From Rhodospirillales bacterium (GTDB lineage Bacteria; Pseudomonadota; Alphaproteobacteria; Rhodospirillales; UBA2165): a stretch of 64,000 nt of DNA. The notes beneath the pieces were generated by a model. That model did not search any database, was not told where the DNA came from, and saw only the letters and a program-made list of their open reading frames with translations. Each line of letters begins with the position of its first letter. The stretch's first letter is position 1. This document shows, piece by piece, positions 23,690 through 41,581 of this stretch. Position numbers and translations under genes: made by a program. The stretch covers positions 4,368,479 through 4,432,478 of the forward strand of contig OZ243926.1 of NCBI GenBank assembly GCA_965213765.1. Direction: 5' to 3'.

Positions 23690-23920
23690 GCGTAGCGCCC
23701 ATTTGCGGCCGAATATCTCCCTTGGCGGGGCCGGCGGGATACGCGCCGGAGAGCCGCCGATACCGCTCGGCCGTCAGTTCAAGGCCGCAGGCCCCGGCAT
23801 TCTCGATTAAGATGCTCCTTGCGGCGTGATCCCGGGATCGGAGGAATTCGTCAACCGGTTGCAGCCGATCCCGAAGGTTGGAATTTCGACGCCCGGGTTG
23901 CCAAATTGCCGCGATTCCAT
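23690..23920 (-). pseudogene. possible relic of an aldo/keto reductase with a large internal deletion
   Basis: The minus strand has GGGGGAG-N3-ATG, then MESRQFGNPGVEIPTFGIGCNRL (AKR-like N-terminus). A frame switch follows to ...SILIENAGACGLELTAERYRRLSGAYPAGPAKGD (AKR-like C-terminus). Only about 75 of roughly 330 expected residues remain. Confidence 0.3.
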
Positions 23921-24045
23921 GGCTCCCCCGTAAATTTTGCGTGCAGGTTGTGCGGTTGCCGGTGAACCCTATAGGATCAAATCACGGCGTGGAAAGCACG
24001 CCGGGCAAACCTGATCAGCGGCGGCGGCGCCGGGGGGAAGGGACG

Positions 24046-25086
24046 ATGAAATTCGGACTATTCGATCACGTGGACGTCAACAATCGTTCGCTGGCCCAGG
24101 AATTCGACGAGCGGCTGGAGTTTGTTTCCGCCGCCGATGAAGCCGGTTTCTACTGCTATCACGTTGCCGAGCACCACGCGACGCCGCTGAACATGGTGCC
24201 CGTACCGGGCGTCTATCTGGGCGCGATAGCCCGGGCGACAAAAAACATCCGGCTCGGTCCGCTGTGCTACCTCCTGCCGCTCTATACGCCCCTTCGTCTG
24301 ATCGAAGAGATTTGCATTCTCGATCACCTCAGCCACGGGCGACTCGATATCGGCGTGGGGCGCGGCGTGTCGCCCTTCGAACTCAAATATCACGATGTGG
24401 ATCCGGACAAGACGCGGCCCGTCTTCCGGGAATGCCTTGAAGCGGTGGTTTACGGGCTGTCCCATGACGTGCTCGATCATCAGGGCGACAACTACTCGTA
24501 CGTCGATGTGCCCATGGAGTTGAGGCCCCTGCAGAATCCCCACCCGCCGATCTGGTATCCGACCAACAACGCCGAAGGCGGGCAATTCGGCGGCGAGAAC
24601 GGCTATCACTTCGTTACTTTGGGCGGCGTCGATTTTGCCCGGCCCGGGGTCGAGTCGTTCAAGGAGGCGCTGGCGAAGCGCGGCCGGCCGGGTGACGGCG
24701 GTGGTGGCGGTTTCAAGGAGGGCGCGGCGGTTGGCATCATGCGCCATCTGGTGATCGCCGAGACCGAGGACGAAGCGCTAAAGCGGGCCGAGCCCGCCTA
24801 CCAGGCTTGGGAGGCGAGCCTGACGAAGCTCTGGCGAGTCAACAAGGTGCCGGGTCCGAACATTGCCCAGTTCATTCCGCCGACGCTCGCCGAGGCGCAA
24901 CAGCGGGGGTCGGTGGTTGTCGGTACGGCCGAGACGGTCAAGGAGACCCTCGCGGCGCATGCCGAAGCACTCGGCCTCAACTACATGGTCCTCGGTTTCT
25001 ACTTCGGCGACATCGCCCACGGACATGCCATGGAGTCCATGCAACGGTTTGCATCCGACGTCATGCCGGCATTGGAGACGATGTAA
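24046..25086 (+). CDS. LLM-class flavin-dependent oxidoreductase
   Basis: Start taken at MKFGLFDHVD. Motifs are YHVAEHHATPL, NIRLGPLCYLLPLYTPLRLIEEICILDHLSHGRLDIGVGRG. It is a paralog of 49739-50785. Confidence 0.85.
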   Translation: MKFGLFDHVDVNNRSLAQEFDERLEFVSAADEAGFYCYHVAEHHATPLNMVPVPGVYLGAIARATKNIRLGPLCYLLPLYTPLRLIEEICILDHLSHGRLDIGVGRGVSPFELKYHDVDPDKTRPVFRECLEAVVYGLSHDVLDHQGDNYSYVDVPMELRPLQNPHPPIWYPTNNAEGGQFGGENGYHFVTLGGVDFARPGVESFKEALAKRGRPGDGGGGGFKEGAAVGIMRHLVIAETEDEALKRAEPAYQAWEASLTKLWRVNKVPGPNIAQFIPPTLAEAQQRGSVVVGTAETVKETLAAHAEALGLNYMVLGFYFGDIAHGHAMESMQRFASDVMPALETM

Positions 25087-25189
25087 GCGGCAAATCCTTC
25101 AGTAGTGCTTGACGTTGCCGCGCCGTCAGACAATAAGAGCGCCGAATTCGGCCTTCACCGTCTCCCCGCCAGCCGAACCCGGAGCCACA

Positions 25190-26362
25190 ATGCCACACCT
25201 GATTTCTCCCCATGGTGGAGACGGTCTACGCCCGTTGCTGATTGAAGCGTCCGAGCGCGAGGCGCGCCGGGCCGCCGCCGCAGGCCTTGCCCAAGTTCCC
25301 ATGTCCAGCCGCGAGACATCCGACCTCATTCTAATGGGCATGGGGGCCTATACCCCGCTGACCGGCTTTATGGGGGAGGCCGATTGGCGAGGTGTCGCCG
25401 GGGACATGAAAATGGTTGACGGAACATTCTGGCCCATTCCGATCACCCTGTCGGTGACCGGGGACCTCGCGGAGACCATCGGCGACGGGGATGACGTCGC
25501 ACTGGTTGACGGCGAGACCGGCACCGTCATGGGCACCATGGCGGTGTCGGAGCGGTACAAGCCGGATCACGCATTCGAGAATGCAAATGTTTTCAGGACC
25601 GGGGACCCGGCCCATCCCGGGGTTGAAAAGGTTCTTGGCCAGCCGCCGGTAAATCTCGGCGGGACGGTGACCGTCTTCGACGAGGGGCCGTTCCGGGCGC
25701 GGTATCCCGACCTCTGCGTTTATCCCCATGAAAGCCGGGCGTTGTTTGAAGAATTGGGCTGGACCCGCGTCGCCGCCTTTAATACCCGGAACCCCATGCA
25801 CCGGAGTCATGAGCATCTGGCAAAAATCGCCATTGAGGTGACCGACGGCGTTTTCATTCATCAGGTGCTGGGCAAGCTCAAGCCGGGAGACATTCCCGCG
25901 GAGATCCGGGTCAAGGCCATCGATGCGATGATTAGTCACTACTTCGCCGGGGAAACCGCTATCCAGGCCGGCGTCCCCCTGGAGATGCGTTACGCGGGAC
26001 CCCGCGAAGCTTTGCTGCACGCCGTGGTCCGGCAGAACTACGGTTGCTCGCATTTGATCGTCGGGCGGGACCACGCGGGCGTCGGAAGCTATTATGGGCC
26101 GTTCGATGCCCAGAAAATCTTCGACACCCTGTGGGAAGGCGCGATCGAAATTCATCCCCTCAAAATCGACATCACATTTTTCTGCACGGCCTGTGGCGGT
26201 ATGGCAACGGCGCGTTCCTGCCCGCACGGCGACGAACACAAGATCCAGATCTCGGGGACCCGCCAGCGGGAGATGCTGGCCGGCGGCGAGGATATCCCGC
26301 CGGAGTTCAGCCGGCCGGAAGTGGTGGCTATACTGCGCGAGTTTTACGCCAATCGAAATTGA
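25190..26362 (+). CDS. sat: sulfate adenylyltransferase (ATP sulfurylase)
   Basis: Start taken at MPHLISPHGG. FNTRNPMHRSHEHL and HLIVGRDHAGVG are the ATP-sulfurylase signatures. About 390 aa. Confidence 0.9.
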   Translation: MPHLISPHGGDGLRPLLIEASEREARRAAAAGLAQVPMSSRETSDLILMGMGAYTPLTGFMGEADWRGVAGDMKMVDGTFWPIPITLSVTGDLAETIGDGDDVALVDGETGTVMGTMAVSERYKPDHAFENANVFRTGDPAHPGVEKVLGQPPVNLGGTVTVFDEGPFRARYPDLCVYPHESRALFEELGWTRVAAFNTRNPMHRSHEHLAKIAIEVTDGVFIHQVLGKLKPGDIPAEIRVKAIDAMISHYFAGETAIQAGVPLEMRYAGPREALLHAVVRQNYGCSHLIVGRDHAGVGSYYGPFDAQKIFDTLWEGAIEIHPLKIDITFFCTACGGMATARSCPHGDEHKIQISGTRQREMLAGGEDIPPEFSRPEVVAILREFYANRN

Positions 26363-26379
26363 GCGGGGGGATCGGATCC

Positions 26380-28017
26380 GTGGCGAAACTGACCGGCGCG
26401 GCGGCGCTGACAAAATCAATCGTTGGCCACGGTGTCGATTCCATATTCGGGTTGCCCGGCGCCCAACTTGATCCGTTGTTCGACAGTTTTCACGCCGAGC
26501 AGGACCGGTTGCGCGTCCTGCATACCCGGCACGAGCAGGGCGCGGCCTACATGGCATTGGGGTACGCCCACTCTACGGGCCGGGAAGGGGTGTGCACCGT
26601 CGTTCCCGGGCCGGGCGTGTTGAACGCCGGCGCCGCCCTGCTCACGGGATACAGTCTTGGCGCCAAGATGCTGTGCATCGGCGGGCAGATTCCCAGTTGG
26701 GGTATCGACAAGAGCATTGGCCTTCTCCACGAAATGATGGATCAGAAAGGAACGATGTCGGCAATGACCAAGTGGCAGGCCCGTGCCGATACCGTTGGCG
26801 AAGGACCTGGATTGATCGCCGAAGCCTTTCGCCAGATGAATACCGGACGCAGCCGGCCGGTGTTTATCGAGATGGCGACCGATATCATGCGTCAATCCGA
26901 TGACGTCGAGCCGGCGAACCGACCTGAAACCTATGATCAGCCGGAGCCGGACCCCGACCTGATCGAGCAGGCGGCCGCCTTGCTCGGCAATGCGGAGAAC
27001 CCGGCGATATTTGTCGGCGGCGGCATCTTCGGTGCCGAGGAGGAATTGCTCCAGCTGGCGGAAGAGTTGCAGGCACCCGTCTTCATGAGCGCCCAGGGCC
27101 TCGGTGCGGTGGACGGCCGCCACCCTCTGGCGCAGAACCTGATCGCGGCGTCACACACGTGGCCCAAGGTCGATGTGGCGCTGGCGGTCGGGACGAAATT
27201 TCTGCTGCCCATTACCCAGTGGGGATGGGACGACGATGTCAAACTGATCCGGGTCGACCCCGACGCGGAGCAATCGGTGGCGCGCTGGCAACCCGATATC
27301 CATCTGGTCGCGCACGGCAAACCCAGCCTTGCCGCCATGGTGGATCGTTTGGGCCGTCACAACCGGTCCAGGACGCCGCGCGAAGACGAGTACCGCGATC
27401 TCAAGAACGCAGCCGACAAGGAACTTGCCGAAGCGCTGCCCGGACAAGTGGCCTATGGCCGGGTCATTCGCGATCGGCTGCCTGATGACGGCATTGCCTG
27501 CTTCGGCGTTACCCAAATGGGCTTTTACAGTTGGTGGGGCTTCCCGACATATTCGCCCAGGACCAATTTGCAGCCCGGGCTCCAGGGAACGCTCGGATAC
27601 AGCTTCCCGACGGCGCTCGGCGCGCAGGTGGCGCATCCGGACAAGAAAGTGGTCTGCGTCGCCGGTGACGGCGGCTTTATGTTCGGAGCGACCGAACTCT
27701 CGACGGCCATCCGTCACGGGATCAATCTGGTCACCTTGATTTTCAACAACAATGCATACGGTAACGTGCAGAAGCTGCAGACCCTCGATTTTGGCGGACG
27801 GCTGATTGCTTCGGACTTGGCGAACCCGGATTTCGTGAAATTCGCCGAATCCTTTGGTGCGATGGGGCTGAGGGCGGAGAGCCCCGAGGATCTGGGGGAC
27901 AGGCTCGATGAAGCGTTTGCCGCCGACGCGCCCGTGCTGATCGACGTGCCCTTCGATGAACTGCCCGACTGGAGGCCGCTGGAGCGGCGTTACCGGATGC
28001 GCGGCAACGCGGACTGA
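26380..28017 (+). CDS. thiamine-diphosphate-dependent enzyme (acetolactate synthase large-subunit-like)
   Basis: GTG start. N-terminal Pyr domain: GVDSIFGLPGAQLDPLFD...HEQGAAYMALGYA...VPGPGVLNA. C-terminal PP domain: CVAGDGGFMFGATELSTAIRHGINLVTLIFNNNAYGNV. Confidence 0.8.
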   Translation: MAKLTGAAALTKSIVGHGVDSIFGLPGAQLDPLFDSFHAEQDRLRVLHTRHEQGAAYMALGYAHSTGREGVCTVVPGPGVLNAGAALLTGYSLGAKMLCIGGQIPSWGIDKSIGLLHEMMDQKGTMSAMTKWQARADTVGEGPGLIAEAFRQMNTGRSRPVFIEMATDIMRQSDDVEPANRPETYDQPEPDPDLIEQAAALLGNAENPAIFVGGGIFGAEEELLQLAEELQAPVFMSAQGLGAVDGRHPLAQNLIAASHTWPKVDVALAVGTKFLLPITQWGWDDDVKLIRVDPDAEQSVARWQPDIHLVAHGKPSLAAMVDRLGRHNRSRTPREDEYRDLKNAADKELAEALPGQVAYGRVIRDRLPDDGIACFGVTQMGFYSWWGFPTYSPRTNLQPGLQGTLGYSFPTALGAQVAHPDKKVVCVAGDGGFMFGATELSTAIRHGINLVTLIFNNNAYGNVQKLQTLDFGGRLIASDLANPDFVKFAESFGAMGLRAESPEDLGDRLDEAFAADAPVLIDVPFDELPDWRPLERRYRMRGNAD

Positions 28018-28037
28018 ACCGAACGACGGAGATACGC

Positions 28038-28892
28038 GTGAGACTCATTTCCTATGAACTGAATGGCGCCGAGGGCGTCGGCGTCATGGTTGACGACAGC
28101 GGTTTCGTGCCGGCCGCGGGTGCCGCCTCCGATTTGCCCGCCACGATGCTGGGGTTGCTGGAACAAGATGGCGCCATCGACGCCTTAAAAGGCGCCGCCG
28201 ATGGAAAGCCCGCCGAGATGACTCTCGCGGACGTGAAGCTGTTGCCCGTGGTCCCCAATCCCAAGGCCATCTGGTGCGTCGGGGTCAACTACAAAGAGCA
28301 CCAGGATGAGACCGGGCGAGGCGCCCAGGAAGAGCCGATGATCTTCCTGCGTATCGCCGAGGCCCAGATCGCCCACGGCGACCCCATGGTTCGCCCGAGT
28401 TTCTCCGATACGCTGGACTGGGAAGGTGAGCTTGCGGTCATTATCGGCAAGCGGGGCCGCGCCATCCCCAGGGAAAAGGCGTTTGATCACATTGCAGGCT
28501 ATTCCATCTACAACGATGGCACGGTCCGCGAATGGCAGCGGCACACCAGCCAATTCGTACCGGGTAAGAATTTTCAGGACACGGGCGGGTTTGGTCCGTG
28601 GATGGTGACCCCCGACGAGTTTGGTGATCCCTACGCCCATGAACTGACCACCCGGATCAATGGCGAGCAGGTTCAGCACACCGGCATCGCCGCGATGGAT
28701 CACAAGATCGACAAGCTGATCAACTACCTGTCGACGGCCATTGCCTTGAACCCGGGCGACGTCATTGCCACCGGAACGCCGGGCGGGGTCGGTTCGCGCC
28801 GCGACCCGCCCTGGTACATGAAACCGGGTGACGTCTGCACCGTCGAGATCACCGGGATCGGCGTACTCGAAAACCCGGTGATCGACGGCTGA
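28038..28892 (+). CDS. fumarylacetoacetate hydrolase (FAH) family protein
   Basis: KAIWCVGVNYKEH, DWEGELAVIIGK, IAGYSIYNDGTVREWQ and GDVIATGTPGGVG are canonical FAH-family motifs. Confidence 0.85.
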   Translation: MRLISYELNGAEGVGVMVDDSGFVPAAGAASDLPATMLGLLEQDGAIDALKGAADGKPAEMTLADVKLLPVVPNPKAIWCVGVNYKEHQDETGRGAQEEPMIFLRIAEAQIAHGDPMVRPSFSDTLDWEGELAVIIGKRGRAIPREKAFDHIAGYSIYNDGTVREWQRHTSQFVPGKNFQDTGGFGPWMVTPDEFGDPYAHELTTRINGEQVQHTGIAAMDHKIDKLINYLSTAIALNPGDVIATGTPGGVGSRRDPPWYMKPGDVCTVEITGIGVLENPVIDG

Positions 28893-28895
28893 CGC

Positions 28896-30098
28896 TTAGG
28901 GTAGGCGTCCGCCGGGCGCGACGCCCCAAGCCATATCAACGATTTTCTCGTCCGCGGCCTCATCGCAGGCCTTCTTGAACGCGGCCATCACCTTGGCGCC
29001 GGTGGTTTCGTTCCAGAACCAATCGGCGATCTGCATGCTCGACGCGATGCAGCCTTCGGCCGCCATGGCCTCCGAGTAGTAGGCCTTGAAGTCCTCGCCG
29101 GCGAGCTTCAGCGCCATGGCCAGCGGGAACTCCGGATTGGGACTGCGGATACCCTCGTCCTCGACGAAGGCCAGGAGCAACTCGCTCGCCATCTCGATAT
29201 TCATTCCGCTGACACCGACGGTGGTTCTGCCGCGGCGCGCCTTGGCCTTCTCATAGGCCGGACGGAGGACTTCGATCTCGGCGTTCATCGCAGCTCTGAG
29301 GCCGGCCAGATCATCGGTGTCCTCAAACGCCGGCGGCAGCTCGATGGCGCAGGTCCAACCGTCAGCCGGCTTGCCGTCCGGCGGGTCATCGCCGAAGTCC
29401 GCCAGCACGGGCCCCGAGGGGCTCTCCATGAGTTTGAGTTGCTGCTTCAGCACCTGTTTCTGGAACTCGCCGTCGGTCGGTGCGCCATAAGGGCGGCCCA
29501 ACTCAAATGGCACGGCGAGACCCCTCGGCACGCCGATCTTCTCGGTATGGAGCTTGATCAGGCTGATGATCGCCGTCACAAAGCCTTCCCGCTCAAGGTA
29601 GTTGGCCAGCACGCTCACGGCGCGCGTGCACATGGGTCAGACGCCCGATAAGGCGACCGCGTCGACGTTGTCCTCTTTGAGAATTGCCGCGACCTCCTTG
29701 GCATTCTGCTCCATGCCGGTGGGGTCGGTCGCGCCCATGAACGAGACATGATTCTTCGCGATTGAGCCGATGAAGCCTTCTTCGGCGAGTTCCCTAATTC
29801 GATCGATCGGGAAGGACACGTTGATGTCTTCCTGAAATCCCGACCGGTCATAGTTGGACGAAACGTGGCTCATAAACAGGTCCGCGCCGTCCGTCTCGGA
29901 AGGAATGACGCGATAATCCGCATCGCCTCTGAAAAACGGGCGGTCGGTTTTGAGATGAAGTCCGGCGGAAGAGACAATCGCCACCCGCATTTCGCTGAGC
30001 GGTTTCGCCTCGTTCCAGGCACTACTCCCGACCTCCGGCATTACGAGGTCGGTCATCCGCTGCGCCATCGCGGGCGCCAGCGCGTCCATCCTAACCAT
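28896..30098 (-). CDS. GrdB/PrdB-family (glycine/betaine/D-proline reductase selenoprotein B-like) protein, candidate selenoprotein with an in-frame TGA at 29637-29639 (U-P-M-C)
   Basis: ORFs 29637-30098 and 28896-29633 are in one frame, separated only by TGA-CCC. Read-through gives ...NVDAVALSGV-U-PMCTRAVSVLANYLEREG. Landmarks SAGLHLKTD, FPIDRIRELAEEGFIG and FMG resemble PrdB/GrdB, with the TGA at their Sec position. GGAG precedes the ATG at 30098. The gene is divergent from selA. Confidence 0.7.
29609..29629 (-). promoter_or_regulatory. SECIS-like hairpin downstream of TGA 29637-29639
   Basis: The mRNA reads UGA-CCCAUGU-GCACGC-GCGCCGUGA-GCGUGC. This is a 6-bp GC-rich stem with a 9-nt loop containing GU. 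The apical loop begins 16 nt from the U of UGA, the same offset as at 23301. Confidence 0.5.
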
Positions 30099-30273
30099 GT
30101 ATCACTCCATCCAATGAGTTAACGAATTCGCTGGCGGGACTAGATCGGAATTCAAAATTCCTGTCAAACCCCACTCTCCCTTTGGTGCGCTTGCCACTAT
30201 TCGGGAACCTTGACGGACCCAAATCGGCGAAATAGCCTCCGGGGACTCAGGGAAATCGGGCGTCTGTTTGACC

Positions 30274-31701
30274 ATGACAGAGACCTCCAAACCGCTGCGG
30301 GCCGTGTTGCCGTCGGTAGATAAACTGCTGCGCCATGATGATGGCCGGGCGCTGGCCGAGGCCTACGGCCGTGCGGCGACCACGGATGCCGTCCGCGCCG
30401 TCATCGACGAATTGCGGCAACGAATCCTCGGCGCCGGCGAGGATGCCGATACCGCGGAAGAGGCCGTGCTGGCTTCCGTCGCGGATCTGTTGGCGGCGAA
30501 ATCGGCGCCGTCGCTCAAAAAAGTCTTCAACCTGACGGGCACGGTCCTGCACACCAACCTGGGCCGCGCACCCCTGCCGCGGGAGGCGATCGAGGCCATG
30601 ACCCTCGTAGCCGGCGGCGCCTCCAACCTGGAATACGATTTGGAAGGCGGTAAGCGGGGCGACCGGGACGTTCACGTGGATGAGTTGTTGGCCGAGCTGA
30701 CCGGCGCCGAGGCGGCGACGGTGGTGAACAACAACGCGGCGGCGGTCCTGCTGGTCCTCAATACGTTGGCCAAGGGCAAGGAGGTTCCCGTTTCCCGCGG
30801 CCAGCTGGTGGAGATCGGCGGCTCGTTCCGCATGCCCGACATTATCCGCCGGGCCGGCTGCAAAATGCATGAGGTCGGGACCACCAACCGGACACATCTT
30901 AAGGATTTCGAAGAGGCCATCAGCGACAAGACGGCGTTGTTGTTGAAGGTCCATACCTCCAATTACGAGGTGCAGGGCTTCACCAAGGAGGTGAGCGACA
31001 CTGAACTCGCCGCGCTGGCACGGAAACACGGCATTCCCTGCGTTGATGATTTAGGCAGCGGCACGTTGGTGGACCTCACTCAATTCGGCCTGCCCCACGA
31101 ACCGACGGCGGCGGAAGCGTTGGCCCACGGCATGTCCGTGGTGACGTTCTCCGGCGACAAGCTGCTGGGCGGGCCGCAGGCCGGCATGATCGTCGGCAAA
31201 AGGGAACTCATCGACAAGATCAAGAAGAACCCGATGAAGCGGGCCTTGCGGATCGACAAGGTGACCATGGCGGCGCTGAGCGCCGTGCTCCGCCTCTATC
31301 TCGATCCCGACCGCCTCGCGGAGCGCATGCCGGCGCTCAGGCTGCTGGCGCGCCAAGCCGATGAAATCGCCGCGACCGGCAAGCGGATCGTCGATCCGGT
31401 GTCCCGGGCGTTTGACGGGATCGCCGCCGTTGAGTTGGTCGGCTGCCAGAGCCAGATCGGCAGCGGTTCCCTGCCGGTGGAGCGACTGGACAGCGTCGCC
31501 CTCGGCATTACCCCGTCAACCGGCAAGCGGGGCGGCGGTGCCGCGCTCAATCGAATCGCCAAGGCGTTCCGCTCACTCCCCATCCCGGTCATTGGCCGGG
31601 TTCACGAAGGCGCCTTCCTTCTCGATCTCCGCTGCCTTGAAGACGTAGAAGCCTTCGTCGGCCAGCTCGACGGGTTGACGCCGGGGGGCGCGTCCAGGTG
31701 A
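30274..31701 (+). CDS. selA: L-seryl-tRNA(Sec) selenium transferase
   Basis: [66 protein letters not shown] and [13 protein letters not shown] (PLP-Lys context). ORF 30268-31701; the ATG at 30274 is preferred. Confidence 0.9.
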
Positions 31702-33626
31702 TCGTCGCGACCGCCGGCCACATAGACCACGGCAAGACCCTACTGGTGCGGACCTTGACCGGGGTCGATACCGACCGGCTGCCCGAAGAGAAAAAACGCG
31801 GCATGTCCATCGATCTGGGCTTCGCTTACAAGCCGATGGCCAGCGGCAAGGTCATGGGATTTGTCGACGTGCCGGGTCACGAGCGCTTCGTTCGCAACAT
31901 GCTGGCCGGCGTTTCCGGCATCGATTACGCGCTGCTGGTCATCGCCGCCGACGACGGACCCATGCCCCAGACCGAGGAGCACCTGGCGATCCTCGATCTC
32001 CTCGGAATCGATCAAGGGGTGGTCGCGCTGACCAAGATCGACCGGGTCGACGAAGCGAGGATCAAGGACGTCACCGAACAGATCGAGTTCCTGTTGATGG
32101 AGACCGGCCTCGAGGGATCGGAAATCCTGCCTGTGTCGGCGGTGACCGGCGATGGGATTGATGAACTCAAGGAGCATCTGGCCATCGCTTCCGAGCTGAT
32201 CGGCGACCGGGACGTTCACGGCAATTTCCGCCTCGCCGTCGACCGGGCATTTACCCTCCAGGGCGCCGGCCTCATCGTCACCGGCTCGGTGTTCGCGGGG
32301 GCGGTGAATGTGGGCGATCAGCTGACCCTCACCCCCGGCGGCCAGAGCGTCCGGGTGCGCGGCATCCACGCCCAGAACGAGGAAGCGGAGGCGGGTGCGG
32401 CCGGTCAGCGCTGCGCCCTCAACATCACCGGCCAGAACCTCACGAAGGACGACGTGCACCGGGGCGGCTGGCTGGTCGCCGATGCGATCCACGATCCCGT
32501 TTCCCGGTTCGATGCCCGGCTCCGGGTGCTGCCGAGCGAGGCCAAGTCTCTCAAGCACTGGACGCCGGTCCATGTCCATCTGGGCGCCGCCGAAATTCCG
32601 GGCCGTGTCGCGGTCCTCGAAGACAAGAACATCCCGCCCGGCGAGAGCGCGTTGGTGCAGATCGTTCTCGACCGGCGGATCGGCGCGCTGCGCGGCGACG
32701 GATTCATTCTTCGCGATCAGTCGGCGACCCGGACGGTCGCCGGCGGCCGTGTACTCGACCCCCACGGCCCCGCCCGGGGCCGTGCCAAGCCGGAACGTCT
32801 TGCCGCTATCGCCGCCATGGAGGAACGCACCGCCGCCGATGCGCTCCGGAAGATTCTCGACCAGCAGGCGCTGGGCGTCGATCTCCCGGCGTTCATCGTC
32901 AGCTGGAACCTGAACGACGATGAACAGGCCGCGCTTTGGGACGCGGTCGAGATCGTCCGTGCCGGTGAGAATCTGGAGACCGGCTACGCGCCCGCGCACT
33001 GGACCAAAATCCGGGACGGCATCACGGCCGCGCTCCGGGCGTGGCACGAAAACGCACCCGAGAAGCCCGGGCCCAGTGCCGACGGGCTTCGCCGCGAGAC
33101 CGGTGTCCGGATGCCGACCAAACGGTTTACGCCGATTATCGAAACCCTGGTCGCCGACGGAACCATCATCAACCGGGGCGCCAGCTATTTCCTGCCGGGC
33201 TTCGAGCCCCAACTGTCGTCCAAGGACGAAGCGCTGTGGAAGCGGGTCAAGCCGATCCTCGAAGACGGGCATACCAAGCCGCCGGTGGTCCACGACATCG
33301 CCGAGAGGATCAAATCGCCCGCCAAGGCGGTGGAGAGCTTCCTCGTCCGCTGCGCCCGGCTGGGCCTCGTCTATCGCGTCGCCAAGAACCGGTTTCTGCT
33401 TCCCGATGCGGTCCTCGAACTCGGCGAGATCGCCGAGGCCTTGGGCCGCGAGAGCAAGGAGCAGGGCTTCGGCGCCGCTGACTTCCGGGACCGCTCGGGG
33501 GTCGGGCGCAACCTCGCCATCGAGATTCTCGAATATTTCGATCATGCCGGCCTCACCTGGCGGAGCGGCAACGAGCGCAAGGTCCTCAAACCGGCCGCCG
33601 AGGTTTTCGGCGACACACCTGGATGA
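31698..33626 (+). CDS. selB: selenocysteine-specific translation elongation factor
   Basis: [48 protein letters not shown] and ALTKIDRV (GTPase G1-G4), plus a long winged-helix C-terminal extension. The GTG start overlaps the selA stop as GTGA. Confidence 0.9.
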
Positions 33627-33645: not shown

Positions 33646-35277
33646 CTAACCCCGATCCATGATCGACGGCGCGGCGAGCGAACCCGATCCCCGCCGGGGG
33701 AATTTGGCAAAGGCATAGCCCTGCTGATGACAAGCCTTGGTGATCACCAGCGCCTTCCAGAACCCGCCGCCGATGAGGACGAACACGCCGGCGGCGCCCA
33801 GCACCCAGACCGGCACGGCGGCCCACGCGGCGGCCGCGGCGAACAGCACCACGGGGATCAGGTGCCCCGACACATTGAGCATGGCTGTCGATGATTCCAG
33901 GATTCCCCGGCTCAACGGGCCGATGCCGTTGGCCTTGGCGCCCTGCACATACATTCGCCACAGGCCGTAATTGATCAGGCCCAGAAGAATGCCGGCGAGA
34001 GGCAGCAGGAAACCGCCCTCGAATGAAATCCCGTAGACCGCGAACACGATGGCCGAGAGGCCGACTCCTTCGTAGAGGCCGGTGGCCACCAGCATGGTCG
34101 GCATCATGGCGACCCGCCAGGTGGGGATGCCCTTGGCCATGTGCAAAATCTTGGCTTGGCAATAGAGAAAGACCAGGGCGGCGGCGCCCGCCAGGAAATG
34201 AAGCGACGGCAGCTGCCAGAGGAAGCCGGCGGCGATGGCCGGATACAGCACCCCGACGGCATAGATTTCGCGGCTCATCCATGAAGTTTGCGGGCGCAGG
34301 ATGGCAAACGGGGCGCGCAGCTTTCGGCCGATCTTGAGCCAGACGAAAAACAGGCCGGCGGCGATGATCCCGGCGGCGCCCAGGTTCATCTTGGTGAGCG
34401 TGGCGCCGTCGAGGCCGGCGAACAGATGCAGCAGGTAGGCGACCACGATCATGCCGGCGCCGAACCCGCCGAGGATGAAATTCATCGCCGCCCGCATGTC
34501 CCAGAAGGTCTGGGGCTGGCCGACCAGCGGATTGGCCGGATCGCTCATCGCCTCGTCGCCGGTATCCGCCGCATTGAGGTCCCGGCCCGGCACCGCCGGC
34601 GTCTCGTAGAGATATTTGATCTGCGGATCGGTGCCGAGCTCCGAATGCATCTGGAAATGGCTGTTTTCCTCCGCAAGCCTGGAGACGTGGCTGTCGGGGT
34701 CGTTGAAGTCGCCGAATTGGATCGCACTGGCAATGCACGACGCGGCACAGGCCGGGGTCGCGTCCGGATCCACCCCCGGCGACAGGCCGGCGGCGATACC
34801 GTCATCGACCCGGTCAATGCAGAAGGTGCACTTCTGGGCGACGCCGAACCGTTCGTCGTGGGCGACCGCTTCTTCCTGAAGCGTCTCCTCTCCGAAATAG
34901 AACTCCTTGTCGTGAACGATGGTCCGCGCCTGATAGGGGCAGGCGACGGCGCAGGATGCGCAGCCGATACACAGATCGTAGTCCATGGTGACCAGCCCGT
35001 CGGCCCGCTGCTTGGTGGCACCGGTCGGGCAGACGGGCACGCAGGGCGGCTCGGCGCAGTGCTGGCAGCCGACCACCATGAACACCCGCTCCACATCGGG
35101 GAAGGCGCCGGTTTCCACGTCCAGAACCCGCCGCCATTGAACCCCGGGGACCGTATCGTTGGCATGCTTGCAGGCGATGGTGCAGGTCTGACAGCCGACG
35201 CAGCGATTGACGTCGACCACCATGCCCCATCTGCGCTCCTCGGCGCGCCGGGACGGATCGGATGAAACCCCGTTCAC
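33646..35277 (-). CDS. fused 4Fe-4S ferredoxin-type (DmsB/PsrB/PadC-like) and polytopic membrane-anchor (DmsC/NrfD/PadD-like) subunit
   Basis: The N-terminal roughly 230 aa carry CVGCQTCTIAC, CQHCAEPPCVPVCP, CIGCASCAVACP and CTFC. The C-terminal roughly 300 aa are highly hydrophobic with multiple predicted TM helices. It lies downstream of the Mo subunit. Confidence 0.8.
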   Translation of the reverse strand: MNGVSSDPSRRAEERRWGMVVDVNRCVGCQTCTIACKHANDTVPGVQWRRVLDVETGAFPDVERVFMVVGCQHCAEPPCVPVCPTGATKQRADGLVTMDYDLCIGCASCAVACPYQARTIVHDKEFYFGEETLQEEAVAHDERFGVAQKCTFCIDRVDDGIAAGLSPGVDPDATPACAASCIASAIQFGDFNDPDSHVSRLAEENSHFQMHSELGTDPQIKYLYETPAVPGRDLNAADTGDEAMSDPANPLVGQPQTFWDMRAAMNFILGGFGAGMIVVAYLLHLFAGLDGATLTKMNLGAAGIIAAGLFFVWLKIGRKLRAPFAILRPQTSWMSREIYAVGVLYPAIAAGFLWQLPSLHFLAGAAALVFLYCQAKILHMAKGIPTWRVAMMPTMLVATGLYEGVGLSAIVFAVYGISFEGGFLLPLAGILLGLINYGLWRMYVQGAKANGIGPLSRGILESSTAMLNVSGHLIPVVLFAAAAAWAAVPVWVLGAAGVFVLIGGGFWKALVITKACHQQGYAFAKFPRRGSGSLAAPSIMDRG

Positions 35278-35314
35278 GATATCGGGCCTTCATTGAGGCC
35301 GCCCCCGCCCCGGC

Positions 35315-35339
35315 GCTCCCCCCTCGAAGGGGAGGGAGC
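35315..35339 (-). other. intercistronic GC-rich hairpin between the Mo subunit and FeS/membrane subunit genes
   Basis: GCTCCCCCCTCGAAGGGGAGGGAGC forms 10 pairs (including one G.U wobble) with one mismatch around a GAA loop. It sits in the 112-nt gap between 35390 and 35277. Confidence 0.6.
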
Positions 35340-35389
35340 ATGAGGTAGGGGCGTCAGCGCCGTCGATATCGAGCGTGCGGCCGCCTCGT

Positions 35390-38134
35390 TCATGCCGCCG
35401 CCCGCTTGGGCCCGTCGCCCTTGATTATCTTCACCCGCGTGATGTCCGAGCCGCTGCCCGTGGAATCGGTCAGCTTAAGGGACAGATCGGTCAGCGAGTT
35501 CAGGCTCGGCAGGTGCAGATCCTTGGCGTAGGGTGTCTTCCAATGATCGAACTGACCGATCATCAGGACCGTATCCGGCCGGATCCCTTCCCGGAGCACC
35601 GCATGGCCGCGGGTCTCGCCGGAGATCGACTGGATGGTCACCGGATCACCCTCCTCAAGGCCCAGTTCCCGGGCGCGTTTCCGGTTGATGATAACGCCCT
35701 TGTGGCCGGCGATATTGTTGGCCACTTCGTTGATCATCGGAATGCCCACATTGGCGCCCCAGGAATACTGCATGGAGCGCGAGGTCAGCGCCCAGAAGGG
35801 GAAGGCGTCCGGATCGCCGCCCTGATCCCTGACGTAGTTGAGCCAGATATCCGGGAACCGTTGGTAGGTCGGCATGGGCTCGTACTCTTCGAGCTGTTCG
35901 TCCCACCATTCGACGCCGATTTCATGGAGCCGGTGGGCGAGCTGGGTGCCGTGGCGCTGGATGCGTTCCTGATAGGGCAGCTCGAAACGGATGCCGTTGG
36001 CCTTGAGGTGCGGGTACAGATACCAGTGAAGCTTGGAGAACGGCCTGAGCATGTAGCCGTGCTCCTTGAACCAGTCGATGCCGACCACGTTCTCGCCGTT
36101 CGACATGTCGTGGCTCGCCGCCTTGGCGGTGGCGTCCCAAATCTCCTCAAGCCCGTGGGGCTTGGCCTCATCGAGGCCGTAATCGTAGTCGCCGGTCACC
36201 AGCCGCATGCCGGCGGCGCCCTTATTGATGGCCTTGTTGTAGGCCTCCAGGATGCCGCTGCGCTCGGCGAGCGCCGTCGCGATGTCGGTCATGTCCTTGG
36301 AATCGACTACCGTGTCGCCGGCGGGCTGACGGATGCACCAGCCCTCGTGACCCCAGAGCTGCTCGATGAACTTGGTGTTGCCGAGCTGGATCAGTTGGAG
36401 GCTTTCCAGGTCGGTGTTTTCCGGCAGCAGGATGTCGGCGAAGTGGTTGGTCTCGTCGTGGGTGTAGGCGAAGGCGACGATGAACGGGAACTCGGCCACC
36501 CGCTCCGCGACCTCGGGCGCATTCCAGGACGAGATCGCGGGATTGGTCCGGTAACAGAACCACATGGCGGGCTTGGTCGGCTTCGGCCAATTCTCCGGCG
36601 GGCGCTTCTGGAACAGCCACGGCAGGTGGGCGGGCCCCAGCGCCGGCGACCACGCCGAATCGGCGACCAGCGGGACCAGCGTCCGGAAGGCGTTGCGGAT
36701 GTGGGGCTTGGCCTGCCATTCCTGCTTGGAGGTTTCGTTGAACGGGAACTCCATGAAACCGTCCCGGTTGATCACTGCCGACGTCTTGCGGTCATCGGCG
36801 GGCCGGTTGAGCTTCACGTTGGTGCCGATCATGCCGCCCGGCACTTCGAGGGCGCCGACCAGGGTCAGCAGCAGCGTCCGTGCCCAGCAGGCATTGTAGC
36901 CGCCCCAGCCATTGTTGACCGTCTTGCCCAGCAGGATGGCGACGGGCCGGTGGGGGAGGGTCCGGCCCTCGATTTCGATGCTCGCGCCGACGGTGGCCTG
37001 CTCGATGAACTCGTCGGCCACCTTGCGGATCTTTTCGGCGGGGACATCGCACTCTTCCGCCGCCCATTCCGGCGAATAGGGCTCGATATGGTCGAGCAGC
37101 TTCTGGTGGGCGGGCTGCGCCTCCACCGAAGCGTGCTCCCAGCGCTGCCCGTCGGGGCCGTCCTCCACCCCCGCGCAGGTATAGGCGCCCTCCAGGGCGG
37201 GATCCTTGATCTCCGCATCGAAGGGCTTGGCCGTGTTGTCGGCGAGGTCCCAGATCAGGGGTTTGAGGCTGACGGGATCGCGCATGAAGTAGCCGTTGGG
37301 ACCGATCAGGTAGGGCGCGTTGGAATCGTCGGCGATCCGTTCCATGTCGCAGATTTCCCGCCACGGACGCTCGATCAGGATGCGGTTGATCATGGCATAG
37401 AGGAAGGCGACGTCGGTCTTGGGCTTGACCGGGATCCATTCGGCCGATACCGCGCCGGTCACCGACAGGTGCGGTTCGATCTGAACCCGCTTCATGCCCC
37501 GGGCCCGCCCGTCCGCGTGCCGCCAGATGCCGGCGACGCCGGCCGACGCATCCCCGTTATGGCCGAAGGAGACGATGTAATTGCAGTGGGGCGTGTCGGG
37601 CGCGACGATAAACGCCCGGTGCCACAACTCGCCGTACAGGTGTTCGGAGTGATAGCACTTCACCCCCTGGCCCGCGCCGAAGCCGAGATCGACTCCGCCG
37701 AAGGCAGAGAGCAGGGCGGGGAAGGTACCCATGTACTGGGTCGGCGTGCCGCCGCCGCCGAAGCTGGCGGCGATTTTGGGATACCCGGATTCGTCCAGCG
37801 GCCCGTCGGCCAACGTGTCCTTGATCTTCTTGCCGACGATGTCGAGGGCCTCGTCCCAGGAGATCGGCACGAAGCCGGGATCCTCGTCCCTGCCTTTCCT
37901 GGGATTGGTCCGCTTCATCGGCGAGGCGATGCGGTGCGGGTTATAGGTCTTCTGGATCAGCCCGTAGGCCTTGACGCACACCCGGCCGCCGCCGGGATGT
38001 TCGTCCTCGATGTCGTAGTTGGATTCGATGCGGGTCGCGACGCCGTCCTCGACCTCGACCTTCATCAGATCGGGCCCGGCGACGCACTGGTAGCAGAAAA
38101 TCGGGACCTGTTTCTTGGTTTTGATTTCGTTCAT
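35390..38134 (-). CDS. molybdopterin (bis-PGD) oxidoreductase catalytic subunit, cytoplasmic type (PadB-like / DMSO reductase family)
   Basis: 914 aa with no twin-arginine leader. The N-terminal motif FCYQCVAGPD...RVCVKAYG keeps only part of the CxxCxxxC...C FS0 motif. VKCYHSEH lies at the expected Mo-ligand region (Cys, no TGA). There is a C-terminal molydopterin dinucleotide-binding-type beta-barrel (GDPVTIQS...G..VLREGIRPD). Confidence 0.8.
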   Translation of the reverse strand: MNEIKTKKQVPIFCYQCVAGPDLMKVEVEDGVATRIESNYDIEDEHPGGGRVCVKAYGLIQKTYNPHRIASPMKRTNPRKGRDEDPGFVPISWDEALDIVGKKIKDTLADGPLDESGYPKIAASFGGGGTPTQYMGTFPALLSAFGGVDLGFGAGQGVKCYHSEHLYGELWHRAFIVAPDTPHCNYIVSFGHNGDASAGVAGIWRHADGRARGMKRVQIEPHLSVTGAVSAEWIPVKPKTDVAFLYAMINRILIERPWREICDMERIADDSNAPYLIGPNGYFMRDPVSLKPLIWDLADNTAKPFDAEIKDPALEGAYTCAGVEDGPDGQRWEHASVEAQPAHQKLLDHIEPYSPEWAAEECDVPAEKIRKVADEFIEQATVGASIEIEGRTLPHRPVAILLGKTVNNGWGGYNACWARTLLLTLVGALEVPGGMIGTNVKLNRPADDRKTSAVINRDGFMEFPFNETSKQEWQAKPHIRNAFRTLVPLVADSAWSPALGPAHLPWLFQKRPPENWPKPTKPAMWFCYRTNPAISSWNAPEVAERVAEFPFIVAFAYTHDETNHFADILLPENTDLESLQLIQLGNTKFIEQLWGHEGWCIRQPAGDTVVDSKDMTDIATALAERSGILEAYNKAINKGAAGMRLVTGDYDYGLDEAKPHGLEEIWDATAKAASHDMSNGENVVGIDWFKEHGYMLRPFSKLHWYLYPHLKANGIRFELPYQERIQRHGTQLAHRLHEIGVEWWDEQLEEYEPMPTYQRFPDIWLNYVRDQGGDPDAFPFWALTSRSMQYSWGANVGIPMINEVANNIAGHKGVIINRKRARELGLEEGDPVTIQSISGETRGHAVLREGIRPDTVLMIGQFDHWKTPYAKDLHLPSLNSLTDLSLKLTDSTGSGSDITRVKIIKGDGPKRAAA

Positions 38135-38148
38135 GGAACCCAGGCGGG

Positions 38149-38559
38149 TCAGCCCGCTCCCTCGATTTTTTTCCGTTTGGCGATCAGGCGTTCCCTGGTC
38201 TTTTCATTGTCGACGACGAACCGGTTGTGCTTGCCGCGCCCGACCTGTTCGACGGCGTCGGTGACCACCGCTTCCATCATCACCATCCGGCCGTCGACGC
38301 CGATAACCTCGATGCTGACCTCGACCCAGGTACCGGCCGGGGTCGGCGCCATGTGATCGACGGCGACATGGGTGCCGACCGTATTCTGCTCGTCGGGCAG
38401 ATGCCGCTGGATGAATTCCTGACACGTCATCTCGATGTCTTCGACCATGGAGGGTGTCGAATAGACCGCGAGTTCCTCGTCCATATGAGAGATAATCCGG
38501 CCGGCATCGATATCGATCCGCCTTGTGTGCTTCATGCCGGCCTTGACGTCTTCAATCAT
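38149..38559 (-). CDS. hotdog-fold thioesterase (FlK / fluoroacetyl-CoA thioesterase-like family)
   Basis: 136 aa. ...AVYSTPSMVEDIEMTCQEFI...EQNTVGTHVAVDHMAPTPAGTWVEV...GKHNRFVV is the pattern of small hotdog thioesterases. It is the first gene of the Mo-enzyme operon. Confidence 0.55.
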   Translation of the reverse strand: MIEDVKAGMKHTRRIDIDAGRIISHMDEELAVYSTPSMVEDIEMTCQEFIQRHLPDEQNTVGTHVAVDHMAPTPAGTWVEVSIEVIGVDGRMVMMEAVVTDAVEQVGRGKHNRFVVDNEKTRERLIAKRKKIEGAG

Positions 38560-38790
38560 GTCGCCTCCAACCCCCGTTCGGCCGGGGCCATTCGCCCCAG
38601 AGGAAGTCTATCCCCCATATAATGATCGGGTGCAGAACATCTTAGCCGGGGAGCGCCCCATGCCAAGCGCCTTCCCGTATCCCGTCCAGAGCCCTGACCG
38701 GTCGCCGGAGCGTTGCAGAATCCGCATGACCTCAACCCATTGAAAGCATTCAATTTCGTTTTCAAATTCCAAGTCCCGACGTTTTGGCGC

Positions 38791-39239: not shown

Positions 39240-40220
39240 ATGGACGTCACAGCCTATGCCGCTTCGGTCGGGCACTCGGTCTGGTTCAGCCACGATTGCG
39301 GCGAGAGCTGGAACCGGGCGCACACGAATTCCGGCGGAATTTACAACGAATCCCGCTGTTGGTGCGTGAGCGTCCACCCGGGCCGTCCGGGCGAGGTATT
39401 GGCGGGTACCGACCTCGGTGTGTATCGCTGGGAGCCGCCGGCGGAAACCTGGGTCCATCTGCCCTCGCCCATGGACGGTCTGCACATATTGCAATTGGTC
39501 CAGGCGCCCCACGACAGCGAGGTCATCTTCGCCGGTACCCGGCCGGCCAATATTTACCGGTCTCTCGACGGCGGCGTCTCGTGGGAGCGGTGCGGCATGG
39601 GGAACGCCGCCGAATGCGCCTTCATCAACACCCCCCGGGTGACCTCGATCCAGTTCGACCCGGTCGACCGGGACACCGTCTGGGTCACCATCGAAATCGA
39701 CGGCATTTACCGGTCGCGGGACCTCGGGCGAACCTGGCAAAAAATGAATGAGGGCCTGATTTCCATTGATACCCACAACCTGGTGTTTTTCGACGAGCCG
39801 GACGGCAGCCGGGAGATCGTCGTCTCGACGGAGGAAGGGCTGCACCGGAGCCTCGACAACGGTGCGACCTGGTCCCATTTCGAGGTACCCGATGCGCCGT
39901 TCGTCTATATGCGCTGCATGGCCAAGCGGACGGACGACAGCGGTGTCGCCTTCCTGTCGGTGGGCGACAAACCGTCCGGCGAGACCGGCATGCTGTTCCG
40001 CAGCCGGGACAAGGGTTACAGTTGGAATCCGGTGGAGCTGCCGGATCGGGTCAACAGTACAATCTGGTGGATCGGCACCAACCCGGCCGATCCCAATCTG
40101 ATTTTCTTCATCACCATCATGGGTCAGGTCTGGCGCTCGACCGACGGTGGCGAAAGCTGGAAAAAAATGGAACGGGAACTCGGCGAGCTACGGATGATTG
40201 CCTGGCAACCGGGCGTCTAG
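39240..40220 (+). CDS. BNR/Asp-box repeat beta-propeller protein (sialidase-fold / Ycf48-like)
   Basis: Start taken at MDVTAYA with GGAGG upstream. Repeated Asp-box-like motifs are SHDCGESW, SLDGGVSW, SRDLGRTW, SLDNGATW, SRDKGYSW and STDGGESW. Confidence 0.7.
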   Translation: MDVTAYAASVGHSVWFSHDCGESWNRAHTNSGGIYNESRCWCVSVHPGRPGEVLAGTDLGVYRWEPPAETWVHLPSPMDGLHILQLVQAPHDSEVIFAGTRPANIYRSLDGGVSWERCGMGNAAECAFINTPRVTSIQFDPVDRDTVWVTIEIDGIYRSRDLGRTWQKMNEGLISIDTHNLVFFDEPDGSREIVVSTEEGLHRSLDNGATWSHFEVPDAPFVYMRCMAKRTDDSGVAFLSVGDKPSGETGMLFRSRDKGYSWNPVELPDRVNSTIWWIGTNPADPNLIFFITIMGQVWRSTDGGESWKKMERELGELRMIAWQPGV

Positions 40221-40252
40221 AGGCGGTCAAGGGAGACCGGAGGAGAAACCAA

Positions 40253-40954
40253 ATGCCCCACAACGTGGATATTCCCGATTACGTCACAGAACGGATCATG
40301 GCCAAGCGCGGCAAACTCAACGTGTTCGATCACTTCGAGCCGGAAAGGACCGCGTTGCTGGTCATCGACATGCAGAACTTCTATGTCGCCGAGGTGGACA
40401 GCGCCAAATCCATCGTGCCCAACATCAACCGGCTGGCGGCGGCCTGCCGGGACAAGGGTATCCCGGTGGTCTGGGTGGTGATGACCGTCGCCGAATCCGA
40501 AGGCGCGCCCAGCCAATGGTCCCTCTACCACGACTATTTCTTCACCGATGAAAAGGCGGCGGCGCACCGCAACAACCTGTCCGAGGGAACCTGGGGCAAT
40601 GAGTTGTACGAGGACCTGGATGTCCGGGACGGCGATCTGCACGCCGTCAAAAAACGGTTCAGCCCGTTCATCGTCGGCTCCAGCGACCTGCACGCGACCC
40701 TGCGGGCCCGCGGTATCGAAAACCTGATCGTCACCGGGACGGCGACCAACATGTGCTCGGAATCCACCGCTCGCGACGCCATGATGCTGGACTACAAGGT
40801 GGTGATGGTGTCCGACGCCAACGCGGCGCGCTACGACGAAGACCATCTGGCCGGGCTGACGTCGTTTTATCAGAGCTTCGGCGACGTACGGACCACCGAT
40901 TCCTGCATCGGCGAGCTGCTCGCACCGGCCTCGGGCTCGGCGGCCGCGGAGTAG
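40253..40954 (+). CDS. isochorismatase-family cysteine hydrolase
   Basis: ALLVIDMQNFY, KKRFSPF, LIVTGTATNMCSESTARDA (catalytic Cys) and VVMVSDA. Confidence 0.85.
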   Translation: MPHNVDIPDYVTERIMAKRGKLNVFDHFEPERTALLVIDMQNFYVAEVDSAKSIVPNINRLAAACRDKGIPVVWVVMTVAESEGAPSQWSLYHDYFFTDEKAAAHRNNLSEGTWGNELYEDLDVRDGDLHAVKKRFSPFIVGSSDLHATLRARGIENLIVTGTATNMCSESTARDAMMLDYKVVMVSDANAARYDEDHLAGLTSFYQSFGDVRTTDSCIGELLAPASGSAAAE

Positions 40955-40968
40955 GGACGCCGCCTGAA

Positions 40969-41568
40969 ATGTCCACCAGCTTCGTCTACACCCCGAGGGT
41001 CCACCTGCGTGACCGGGTGGTGACGCCGGACATCCTGATCGACCGGCTGTTCGTTTCGCGGAAAGGCGATACCACCCTTTATCCCGTGCCGGTCAGCCGG
41101 CTGACCGCGGATGTGGGCTTTCAAGCCGCCGGAGCGGGCTGCGCCCCCGATGCGGGGCTCGCGCTCGTCGGCGCCGGCGCCGGGATGCTGGTCGCCGCCG
41201 CGTCCGATCATCGGCCGGCCGGCGATCCCCCGGGCGCGGCAAGCCACGATAAGCCTCTCGGCCGCGAGGCCTGGCGGTACGCGGAAATCGCCGGCCACCT
41301 GGATGAGGTCATGATCCGCGCGTCGGGCGGTGGCGGCGCCCCGTGGCAGGAGGCGGCCGCCGGCGAAGGATTGGACGTGACCGGCGCCTTGGGCGTCTTC
41401 GGCGGGGATGTGGCGCCGGGCGATGCGGTGATCGTCACCGGCCTGCCGTTCATCGGCGCCTCGGTGGGCGGGCCCTACGTGGCCGAGGTCGAAGACCCGG
41501 TCCTGGACCGACGGTTGACCCTTCACTACGCTGTCGACAATCTGTTTCCCCCCATAGCGGCGTCATGA
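40969..41568 (+). CDS. hypothetical protein
   Basis: 199-aa ORF from the ATG at 40969 with consistent high GC3, tightly packed between neighbouring same-strand genes. No family recognised. Confidence 0.5.
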   Translation: MSTSFVYTPRVHLRDRVVTPDILIDRLFVSRKGDTTLYPVPVSRLTADVGFQAAGAGCAPDAGLALVGAGAGMLVAAASDHRPAGDPPGAASHDKPLGREAWRYAEIAGHLDEVMIRASGGGGAPWQEAAAGEGLDVTGALGVFGGDVAPGDAVIVTGLPFIGASVGGPYVAEVEDPVLDRRLTLHYAVDNLFPPIAAS

Positions 41569-41581
41569 TCCGGAGACCCCA

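Follow-up and report, generated by a model that had tools for sequence, protein, structure and literature searches.

Two adjacent open reading frames (ORFs) that are parted by an in-frame TGA on the minus strand of a 64,000-nucleotide stretch of Rhodospirillales bacterium DNA (contig OZ243926.1, positions 4,368,479 to 4,432,478; this whole stretch is called the window below) very probably constitute one gene, which encodes a 400-residue, selenocysteine (Sec)-containing selenol/thiol reductase that resembles PrdB, the B subunit of D-proline reductase, and is not itself a D-proline reductase. Judged from alignment with annotated prdB genes, the TGA is a genuine Sec codon in a PrdB relative, while the selenol/thiol reductase function is one that we infer by analogy. 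The gene belongs to a large, already known family that ocean surveys have long counted as "PrdB". An earlier note on this DNA, made from the sequence letters, had described the product as an orphan member of the GrdB/PrdB family, and this description was supported by the lack of PrdA, PrdC and PrdH at 87 loci of the family and in the window. The features discussed are collected in Table 1.

Evidence for recoding of the in-frame TGA

The split from which the earlier note had started, i.e., two ORFs of the same frame at 29637-30098 (153 aa) and 28896-29633 (245 aa), was reproduced by the ORF listing, and translation of 30098..28896 on the minus strand agreed with the proposed 400-aa read-through product. 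The single in-frame TGA (29639-29637) is codon 154 and is followed by CCC ATG TGC; the read-through product around it reads ...DAVALSGV-U-PMCTRAVSVLANYLE.... The N-terminus of the product is MVRMDAL..., and the homologs open with the same MV(R/K)L.D motif, which is consistent with the assigned start. The coding pattern rich in G+C at third codon positions (GC3), which had been said to continue past the TGA, does so, with a GC3 of 0.83 downstream versus 0.745 upstream.

Membership in the GRDB family was confirmed by the Pfam profile GRDB (PF07355), which matched residues 16-151 with 38.6 bits against a gathering threshold of 22. At the same time, the PrdB model TIGR04483 matched with E = 1.4e-42, and residues 20-225 were aligned to profile positions 12-219 of 238 in one stretch running across the TGA. 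Two reference prdB genes, annotated by the Prokaryotic Genome Annotation Pipeline (PGAP) and found by tblastn of a plasmid collection, were used for comparison: that of Terrisporobacter glycolicus pTG1, located in a canonical prdC-prdA-(small ORF)-prdB operon and carrying its TGA at codon 151, and that of Peptoclostridium acidaminophilum, likewise with an in-frame TGA. The protein alignment put the window TGA on the annotated Sec of prdB (AG-U-GTC-HR in PrdB versus GV-U-PMC-TR in the window protein), as the earlier note had expected. The identity between the window protein and genuine PrdB was 33% across the full PrdB length, with Cys157 and Arg159 invariant between the two, and PrdB core residues are invariant beyond the redox motif as well (e.g., S77-H78, D84, D91, N93, F96-P97 and D99-R100). 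In Clostridioides difficile PrdB, the catalytic Sec is U151 (PMC11229817).

A search of 5.8 billion proteins returned full-length homologs of 369-470 aa (most of them 409-427 aa) with PF07355, all of which carry Cys at the TGA column (PVCPNCTR), together with over 100 "hypothetical" proteins, each about 245 aa long, whose match is confined to the post-TGA part, the signature of Sec forms cut by gene callers. A genome scan with one genome per GTDB species gave at least 595 relatives, from which the best 80 loci were kept (loci are denoted below by L numbers); these are the top-scoring relatives, and Cys forms exist but are more distant. Besides Rhodospirillales metagenome-assembled genomes (MAGs), which share 93-94% identity with the window, the hosts of these best loci were further Alpha-, Beta- and Gammaproteobacteria, Desulfobacterota, Chloroflexi/Dehalococcoidia and Binatia. 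When the orthologs were checked for TGA or Cys at this site, TGA was present in 77 of 77 loci at 44-94% identity, the count covering the loci in which the column was found by motif search (3 of the best 80 were not located by the regular expression), and Cys, the only replacement seen, was present in the full-length homologs; no ortholog ends at this position.

The 245 codons downstream of the TGA proved to be conserved and not decayed, as seen from both invariant residues and purifying selection. In four orthologs with 93-94% identity, the ratios of synonymous to non-synonymous codon differences past the TGA were 31:13, 27:14, 38:13 and 35:16. Invariant or near-invariant residues of this part are E169, P191-R192, F198, G201, P203, G205, F212-Q213 and C250, followed by E274, R291-T292-T293-V294-G295, D336, Y341, E343 and T365.

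Reading the TGA as a real stop, which would leave either a nonsense pseudogene or two genes (153 aa plus 240-245 aa, the second restarting at ATG156 or GTG161), has next to no chance of being correct. Gene callers do routinely give two halves, databases contain the more than 100 "hypothetical" proteins of about 245 aa, and an ATG is present after the TGA in the window. However, all 77 loci, which belong to several phyla, keep the TGA together with two intact halves; few relatives have Met at codon 156, and in 15 of the 77, codon 161 reads GTT, GTC or GTA, none of which is a start. Residues 155-160, including the invariant C157 and R159, are conserved as protein though they would be untranslated in the two-gene model. 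Moreover, the Cys forms are single polypeptides, and both halves build one PrdB-like domain.

Putative SECIS element

According to published criteria, a bacterial selenocysteine insertion sequence (bSECIS) has a loop of 3-9 nt, an upper stem of 4-16 bp, a distance of 16-37 nt from the UGA and a minimum free energy of -7.5 kcal/mol or lower, with a G within the first two loop positions that is usually followed by G or U (PMC13188914). The hairpin of the window, which follows UGA154 at a distance of 11 nt, agrees with this consensus in its 6-bp stem, 5-nt loop, G-U at loop positions 2-3 and 17-nt spacing, and its energy is -9.8 kcal/mol, or -12.6 kcal/mol with the lower stem. The same consensus was satisfied in 74 of 74 distinct relatives. 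The hairpin that the earlier note had placed at 29629-29609 exists (-10.6 kcal/mol), but the register conserved in the family lies 4 nt off; the two structures are different registers of one GC-rich element. RNAalifold gave a slightly different register with a weak energy, and an Rfam scan of the window returned tRNA only, with no bacterial SECIS family matched.

In nearly all relatives, the sequence following the codon conforms to UGA CCN NNN UGY ACG CGC GCC GUG GGC GSG CU. At codons 158-161 (T, R, A, V), the entropy of the third position amounted to 0.47, 0.29, 0.24 and 0.89 bits, respectively, among 77 genes whose GC3 spans 0.43-0.90; a control set of 86 further conserved four-fold codons from the same gene had a mean of 1.59 bits and a minimum of 0.88 bits. 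The Cys forms provided a second control: four independent genes (L081, L086, L087 and L088) lack the SECIS block and vary freely at its positions. The closest Cys form, L082:6030-7139 (P0002; also L083), has TGC at the Sec position, yet it retains the intact block TGC ACG CGC GCC GTG GGC GGG CTG GCA, and by its sequence L082 is an apparent case of recent conversion from Sec to Cys that has left a fossil SECIS behind.

Selenocysteine machinery around the family gene

Both selA and selB are intact and located divergently upstream of the selenoprotein gene, and selB carries the winged-helix SECIS-binding domains. The two genes overlap by 4 nt (31698-31701), with the GTG start of selB within the selA stop region, which suggests translational coupling. 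Elsewhere in the family, a tRNA-Sec gene (anticodon TCA) was found within 8 kb in 17 of the 80 Sec-form loci versus none of the 5 Cys-form loci, and of the 22 tRNA genes detected in those flanks, 17 were for tRNA-Sec (for example, L013:7784-7877, L025:11612-11707 and L052:11622-11717). Additionally, selA, selB or selD was present in the flanks of 26 of 77 loci.

SelD (AIRS/AIRS_C) adjoins the family gene, often in convergent orientation, in L032:8017-10230 (minus strand) and in 10-15 other loci; the SelD-linked loci beside L032 are L019, L023, L025, L027, L043, L044, L047, L049, L051-L053, L060, L062, L063 and L076. In 11 loci, SelD is fused to an N-terminal Pyr_redox_2 (pyridine-nucleotide-disulfide oxidoreductase) domain, giving a protein of about 738 aa.

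Following the established bacterial Sec pathway, from which these steps are adopted, the SelB-GTP-Sec-tRNA(Sec) complex would bind the hairpin while the ribosome sits at UGA154 and would insert Sec, after which translation would run on into the conserved C-terminal 246 residues.

Domain architecture and distinction from PrdB and GrdB

The remark of the earlier note that the C-terminal part does not look like PrdB proved correct: genuine PrdB stops at about residue 232 of the window protein, and in a Pfam scan the extension that follows was without a match. The AlphaFold2 model, based on an 89-sequence alignment (overall predicted local distance difference test, pLDDT, 86.3; predicted template modelling score, pTM, 0.86), consists of an N-terminal alpha/beta part and a C-terminal all-helical bundle. 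No relative of the window protein was returned by a sequence search of the PDB, and Foldseek comparison of the model with the PDB gave nothing at E <= 0.001, so that neither the fold of the C-terminal domain nor that of PrdB itself was linked to a solved structure. A HMMER scan with the extension alone against 1.84 billion representatives yielded 446 clusters, in which it was always joined to the PrdB-like domain, its start lying nearly always close to residue 74 (miscalled fragments of about 245 aa) or close to residue 240 (Cys forms of about 411-415 aa); no other architecture of the extension was found among these representatives.

The family shares with PrdB of the C. difficile/Acetoanaerobium sticklandii type (TIGR04483) the fold family over residues ~20-232, the U151/U154 column, the U-x-x-C motif with its Arg and a SECIS hairpin directly 3' of the UGA. 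It differs from PrdB in the absence of PrdA, PrdC and PrdH from its loci, in the 168-residue helical C-terminal domain, in the common occurrence of natural Cys variants and in its distribution, which is mostly in Proteobacteria, Desulfobacterota and Chloroflexi and not in Stickland-fermenting Clostridia. The score under the equivalog model TIGR04483 was 145.8 bits versus a cutoff of 300, and the size of about 240 residues typical of PrdB is exceeded by the 400 residues of the window protein, 168 of which lie in the added C-terminal domain. The earlier observation that no PrdA-like partner is visible was extended by tblastn, in which PrdA, PrdC and PrdH (for the last, the PrdH-like ORF of the canonical prd operon was the query) gave zero matches in the 87 loci and the 64-kb window, whereas PrdB matched all of them.

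It is very improbable that the product is nevertheless a genuine B subunit of D-proline (or glycine/betaine/sarcosine) reductase, with genes for PrdA/GrdE and for the partners in electron transfer located in another part of the genome. Such an assignment would explain why the best NCBIfam match is the PrdB equivalog model (E = 1.4e-42) and why 33% identity to real PrdB extends over its whole length with the Sec motif kept, and it would agree with the label "proline reductase PrdB" used in earlier surveys. Nevertheless, the score is under half of the cutoff, with the Grd models far below theirs; PrdA, PrdC and PrdH are absent from all of the loci searched, while in real systems they belong to the same operon; the 168-residue extra domain never occurs in PrdB, and the N-terminal half of GrdB is absent. 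Moreover, many hosts (Rhodospirillales, marine Alphaproteobacteria) are from lineages not known for Stickland metabolism.

With GrdB/GrdF/GrdH (PF07355, TIGR01917/01918), the protein shares membership in the GRDB family and an equivalently placed U-x-x-C, just past the end of the Pfam profile. However, only profile positions 204-345 of 347 were matched, the N-terminal ~200 residues of GrdB being missing in the window protein, and U-x-x-C-x-x-C has been described for GrdB (PMC13188914), whereas the window protein has U-P-M-C-T-R-A. The Grd models gave 48.9-64.4 bits versus cutoffs of 602-800, and TIGR01918 gave 50.5 versus 65.45. GrdA/GrdE Pfam families were found neither near the gene in the window nor in the neighbour clusters that recur in the family, a statement that refers to Pfam families, as no tblastn with GrdA/GrdE was made.

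Relation to the "PrdB" of marine surveys

In the surveys of the Sargasso Sea, of the Global Ocean Sampling (GOS) and of the Olavius Delta 1 symbiont, "proline reductase PrdB" ranked with the most abundant selenoprotein families: 42 Sec genes were reported for the Sargasso Sea (PMC1088965), and 235 Sec and 110 Cys forms for GOS (PMC2398784). For the Olavius Delta 1 symbiont, five "PR" selenoprotein genes and no GrdA/GrdB were reported (PMC1976440). The survey "PrdB" (Zhang & Gladyshev 2005, 2007, 2008) is like the window family in its assignment to pfam07355, in UxxC and in the existence of both Sec and Cys forms; in the available parts of these papers, the sequences were simply called PrdB, and the missing PrdA, the C-terminal domain and the linkage to Sec genes are unmentioned. 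The term "PrdA" has zero occurrences in the GOS paper (PMC2398784).

We infer that the "PrdB" of the surveys corresponds to the subfamily of the window. The Sec status of the family is already known, because it was counted in those surveys, and the Delta 1 symbiont (Desulfobacterota) has a full-length member of the family at L055. Two paralogous Sec-form copies were observed in some genomes, namely L056 and L065 in a Dehalococcoidales MAG and L023 and L069 in a Proteobacteria MAG, in agreement with the five copies reported for the Delta 1 symbiont. No functional study of this orphan PrdB-like family was found in the open-access literature.

Possible function

PrdB provides the chemical precedent: the pyruvoyl group of PrdA binds D-proline, whose alpha-carbon is attacked by U151 of PrdB, and a U151C variant is inactive (PMC11229817). 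By analogy with PrdB/GrdB, the Sec154 selenolate of the window protein would attack a small-molecule substrate at an electrophilic carbon or heteroatom, leading to reductive cleavage of a C-X bond; Cys157 would then resolve the adduct to a selenenylsulfide, which a cellular thiol system (thioredoxin or glutathione/glutathione S-transferase, GST) would re-reduce. The C-terminal 168-residue domain probably supplies, on the same analogy, the substrate-binding or partner function that PrdA gives in the canonical enzyme.

Several results weigh against this interpretation. No significant covariation was detected in the hairpin, where pair counts equalled those of shuffles, because the stem hardly varies; the local fold was no stabler than that of shuffled sequence (z = +1.28), with an energy ordinary for the GC content, and because it matches the shuffles the hairpin alone does not go beyond chance; furthermore, the conserved peptide C-T-R-A-V forces part of the sequence conservation of the hairpin. 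What supports the hairpin is the extreme conservation of synonymous sites, not covariation or fold stability. Neither tRNA-Sec (selC) nor selD was found within the 64-kb window. The chemical mechanism is pure analogy with PrdB, and Cys forms are common in the family but the U151C variant of PrdB is inactive, so the chemistry may differ from proline reduction. Finally, when the neighbourhoods of the 77 loci were clustered, no partner proved to be shared across clades. Neighbouring GST and enoyl-CoA hydratase genes were considered as functional evidence for the Sec forms and rejected, as they represent synteny inside close clades (73-100% identity).

The Cys-form genes are located in operon-like, same-strand clusters with a TauD-family dioxygenase, a major facilitator superfamily (MFS) transporter, GSTs and sulfatases. 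This arrangement, known from four loci of one subclade, suggests the catabolism of an imported small molecule, and the TauD/MFS/sulfatase/GST composition is a hint at an organosulfur or quaternary-amine compound. The clusters were observed at L081:7281-10136, L087:2566-10143 and L088:54-3628.

The neighbourhood data can also be read in favour of a Sec-containing thiol-disulfide redox protein (a carrier, or a reductase handling peroxide, disulfide or selenium) in which U-x-x-C would transfer electrons or selenium with no C-X cleavage, and we consider this unlikely. It would account for the frequent linkage to selD, selA, selB and selC, the Sec-machinery genes being the sole association seen across clades (the SelD-oxidoreductase fusions included, 11-16 loci), as well as for the viability of the family's Cys forms, unlike PrdB U151C, and U-x-x-C is a generic redox motif (PMC13188914). 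However, the fold is of the PrdB type and not thioredoxin-like, the invariant PrdB core residues argue for a retained substrate site, and the Cys forms occur in the catabolic-looking clusters described above (TauD dioxygenase, MFS transporter, sulfatases, GST); the linkage to Sec genes would also be expected of a protein that is simply the main selenoprotein in its hosts.

For the PrdB-like selenol/thiol reductase that we prefer, a more specific proposal can be offered tentatively. The protein might be a self-contained, pyruvoyl-independent selenoenzyme in which the helical C-terminal domain replaces PrdA/GrdE and which cleaves a C-N, C-S or C-O bond of an abundant environmental molecule; it might also be what chiefly makes many Alphaproteobacteria and members of other lineages retain the complete machinery of Sec insertion, and carry it beside this gene. 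We regard this proposal as possible and still rather doubtful.

Genomic surroundings

The 175-bp divergent region that the earlier note had described between the gene and selA was obtained when selA starts at the in-frame ATG 30274. It contains GGAG some 9 nt before the start codon (ATG, 30098), and when 30099..30273 was searched for a sigma-70 consensus, no convincing one was found. The 3' neighbour is a convergent FAA-hydrolase gene with its end at 28892, and because this downstream neighbour is convergent, the selenoprotein gene is monocistronic here.

Table 1 Features of the selenoprotein gene and its surroundings in the window (positions are those of the window)
Feature	Position	Strand	Details and basis
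Selenoprotein gene, complete	28896..30098	minus	400 codons plus TAA stop; ATG at 30098; translation and 77 loci with the same structure
Sec codon UGA (codon 154), opening the U-P-M-C redox motif	29637..29639	minus	aligned with the prdB TGA and the Cys of homologs
Codon for Cys157, presumed resolving Cys of U-x-x-C	29628..29630	minus	invariant in the family, the Cys forms and genuine PrdB
Bacterial SECIS-type hairpin (putative)	29604..29630	minus	lower stem 29630-29628/29606-29604; upper stem 29625-29620/29614-29609; loop CGUGA 29619-29615
PrdB-like catalytic domain, residues ~20-232	29403..30041	minus	TIGR04483; Pfam GRDB; alpha/beta domain of the AlphaFold2 model
Family-specific C-terminal extension, residues 233-400, all-helical	28899..29402	minus	conserved C250 and RRGRTTVG (288-295)
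Divergent intergenic region, gene/selA	30099..30273		175 bp; sequence
selA, L-seryl-tRNA(Sec) selenium transferase	30268..31701, probable start ATG 30274	plus	TIGR00474 601 bits versus an equivalog cutoff of 267.9; Pfam SelA 1.7e-161
selB, Sec-specific elongation factor	31698..33626	plus	TIGR00475 474 bits versus an equivalog cutoff of 242; SelB-wing_2, SelB_WH_2nd, SelB-wing_3

The FAA-hydrolase gene belongs to a run of four genes on the plus strand (23878-28892) that ends 3 nt from the stop of the selenoprotein gene and encodes a luciferase-like monooxygenase, an ATP sulfurylase (PUA_2 plus ATP-sulfurylase), a thiamine pyrophosphate (TPP)-dependent enzyme of the PRK08266 subfamily and the FAA-hydrolase family protein. 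This run is also kept in L001 and L006, and the luciferase-like gene also adjoins the Cys form in L082.

Downstream of selB and convergent with it, a pair of genes that also occurs in L006 occupies 33646-38134 on the minus strand. One encodes a 914-aa molybdopterin oxidoreductase (35390-38134), the other a 543-aa protein (33646-35277) in which a 4Fe-4S domain of the DsrO/NrfC type is joined to a DmsC-like membrane anchor. The molybdopterin oxidoreductase was considered as a second selenoprotein and was ruled out as an obvious one, since its 914 codons form one ORF without interruption. Directly upstream of it, on the same strand, lies a small ORF (38150-38560) for a product of about 136 aa. 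Further along, genes for isochorismatase-family, DUF2848 and Meth_synt_2 (cobalamin-independent methionine synthase-like) proteins occupy 40022-42700 on the plus strand, followed by tRNA-Ser(GGA) at 42779-42869.

Implications

Public databases wrongly represent this gene, like hundreds of its relatives, as a protein of about 153 aa plus a "hypothetical" protein of about 245 aa, and each pair should be annotated as one Sec-containing coding sequence. For two decades, "PrdB" has figured in reports as one of the ocean's most abundant selenoprotein families. Since PrdA is missing and an extra domain is present, the members studied here cannot be proline reductases of the known kind. The interest lies in the function of this orphan PrdB-like family rather than in the recoding event, and the linkage to selA, selB, selC and selD, the natural Cys forms, their catabolic-looking clusters and the confident structural model provide leads for experiments.

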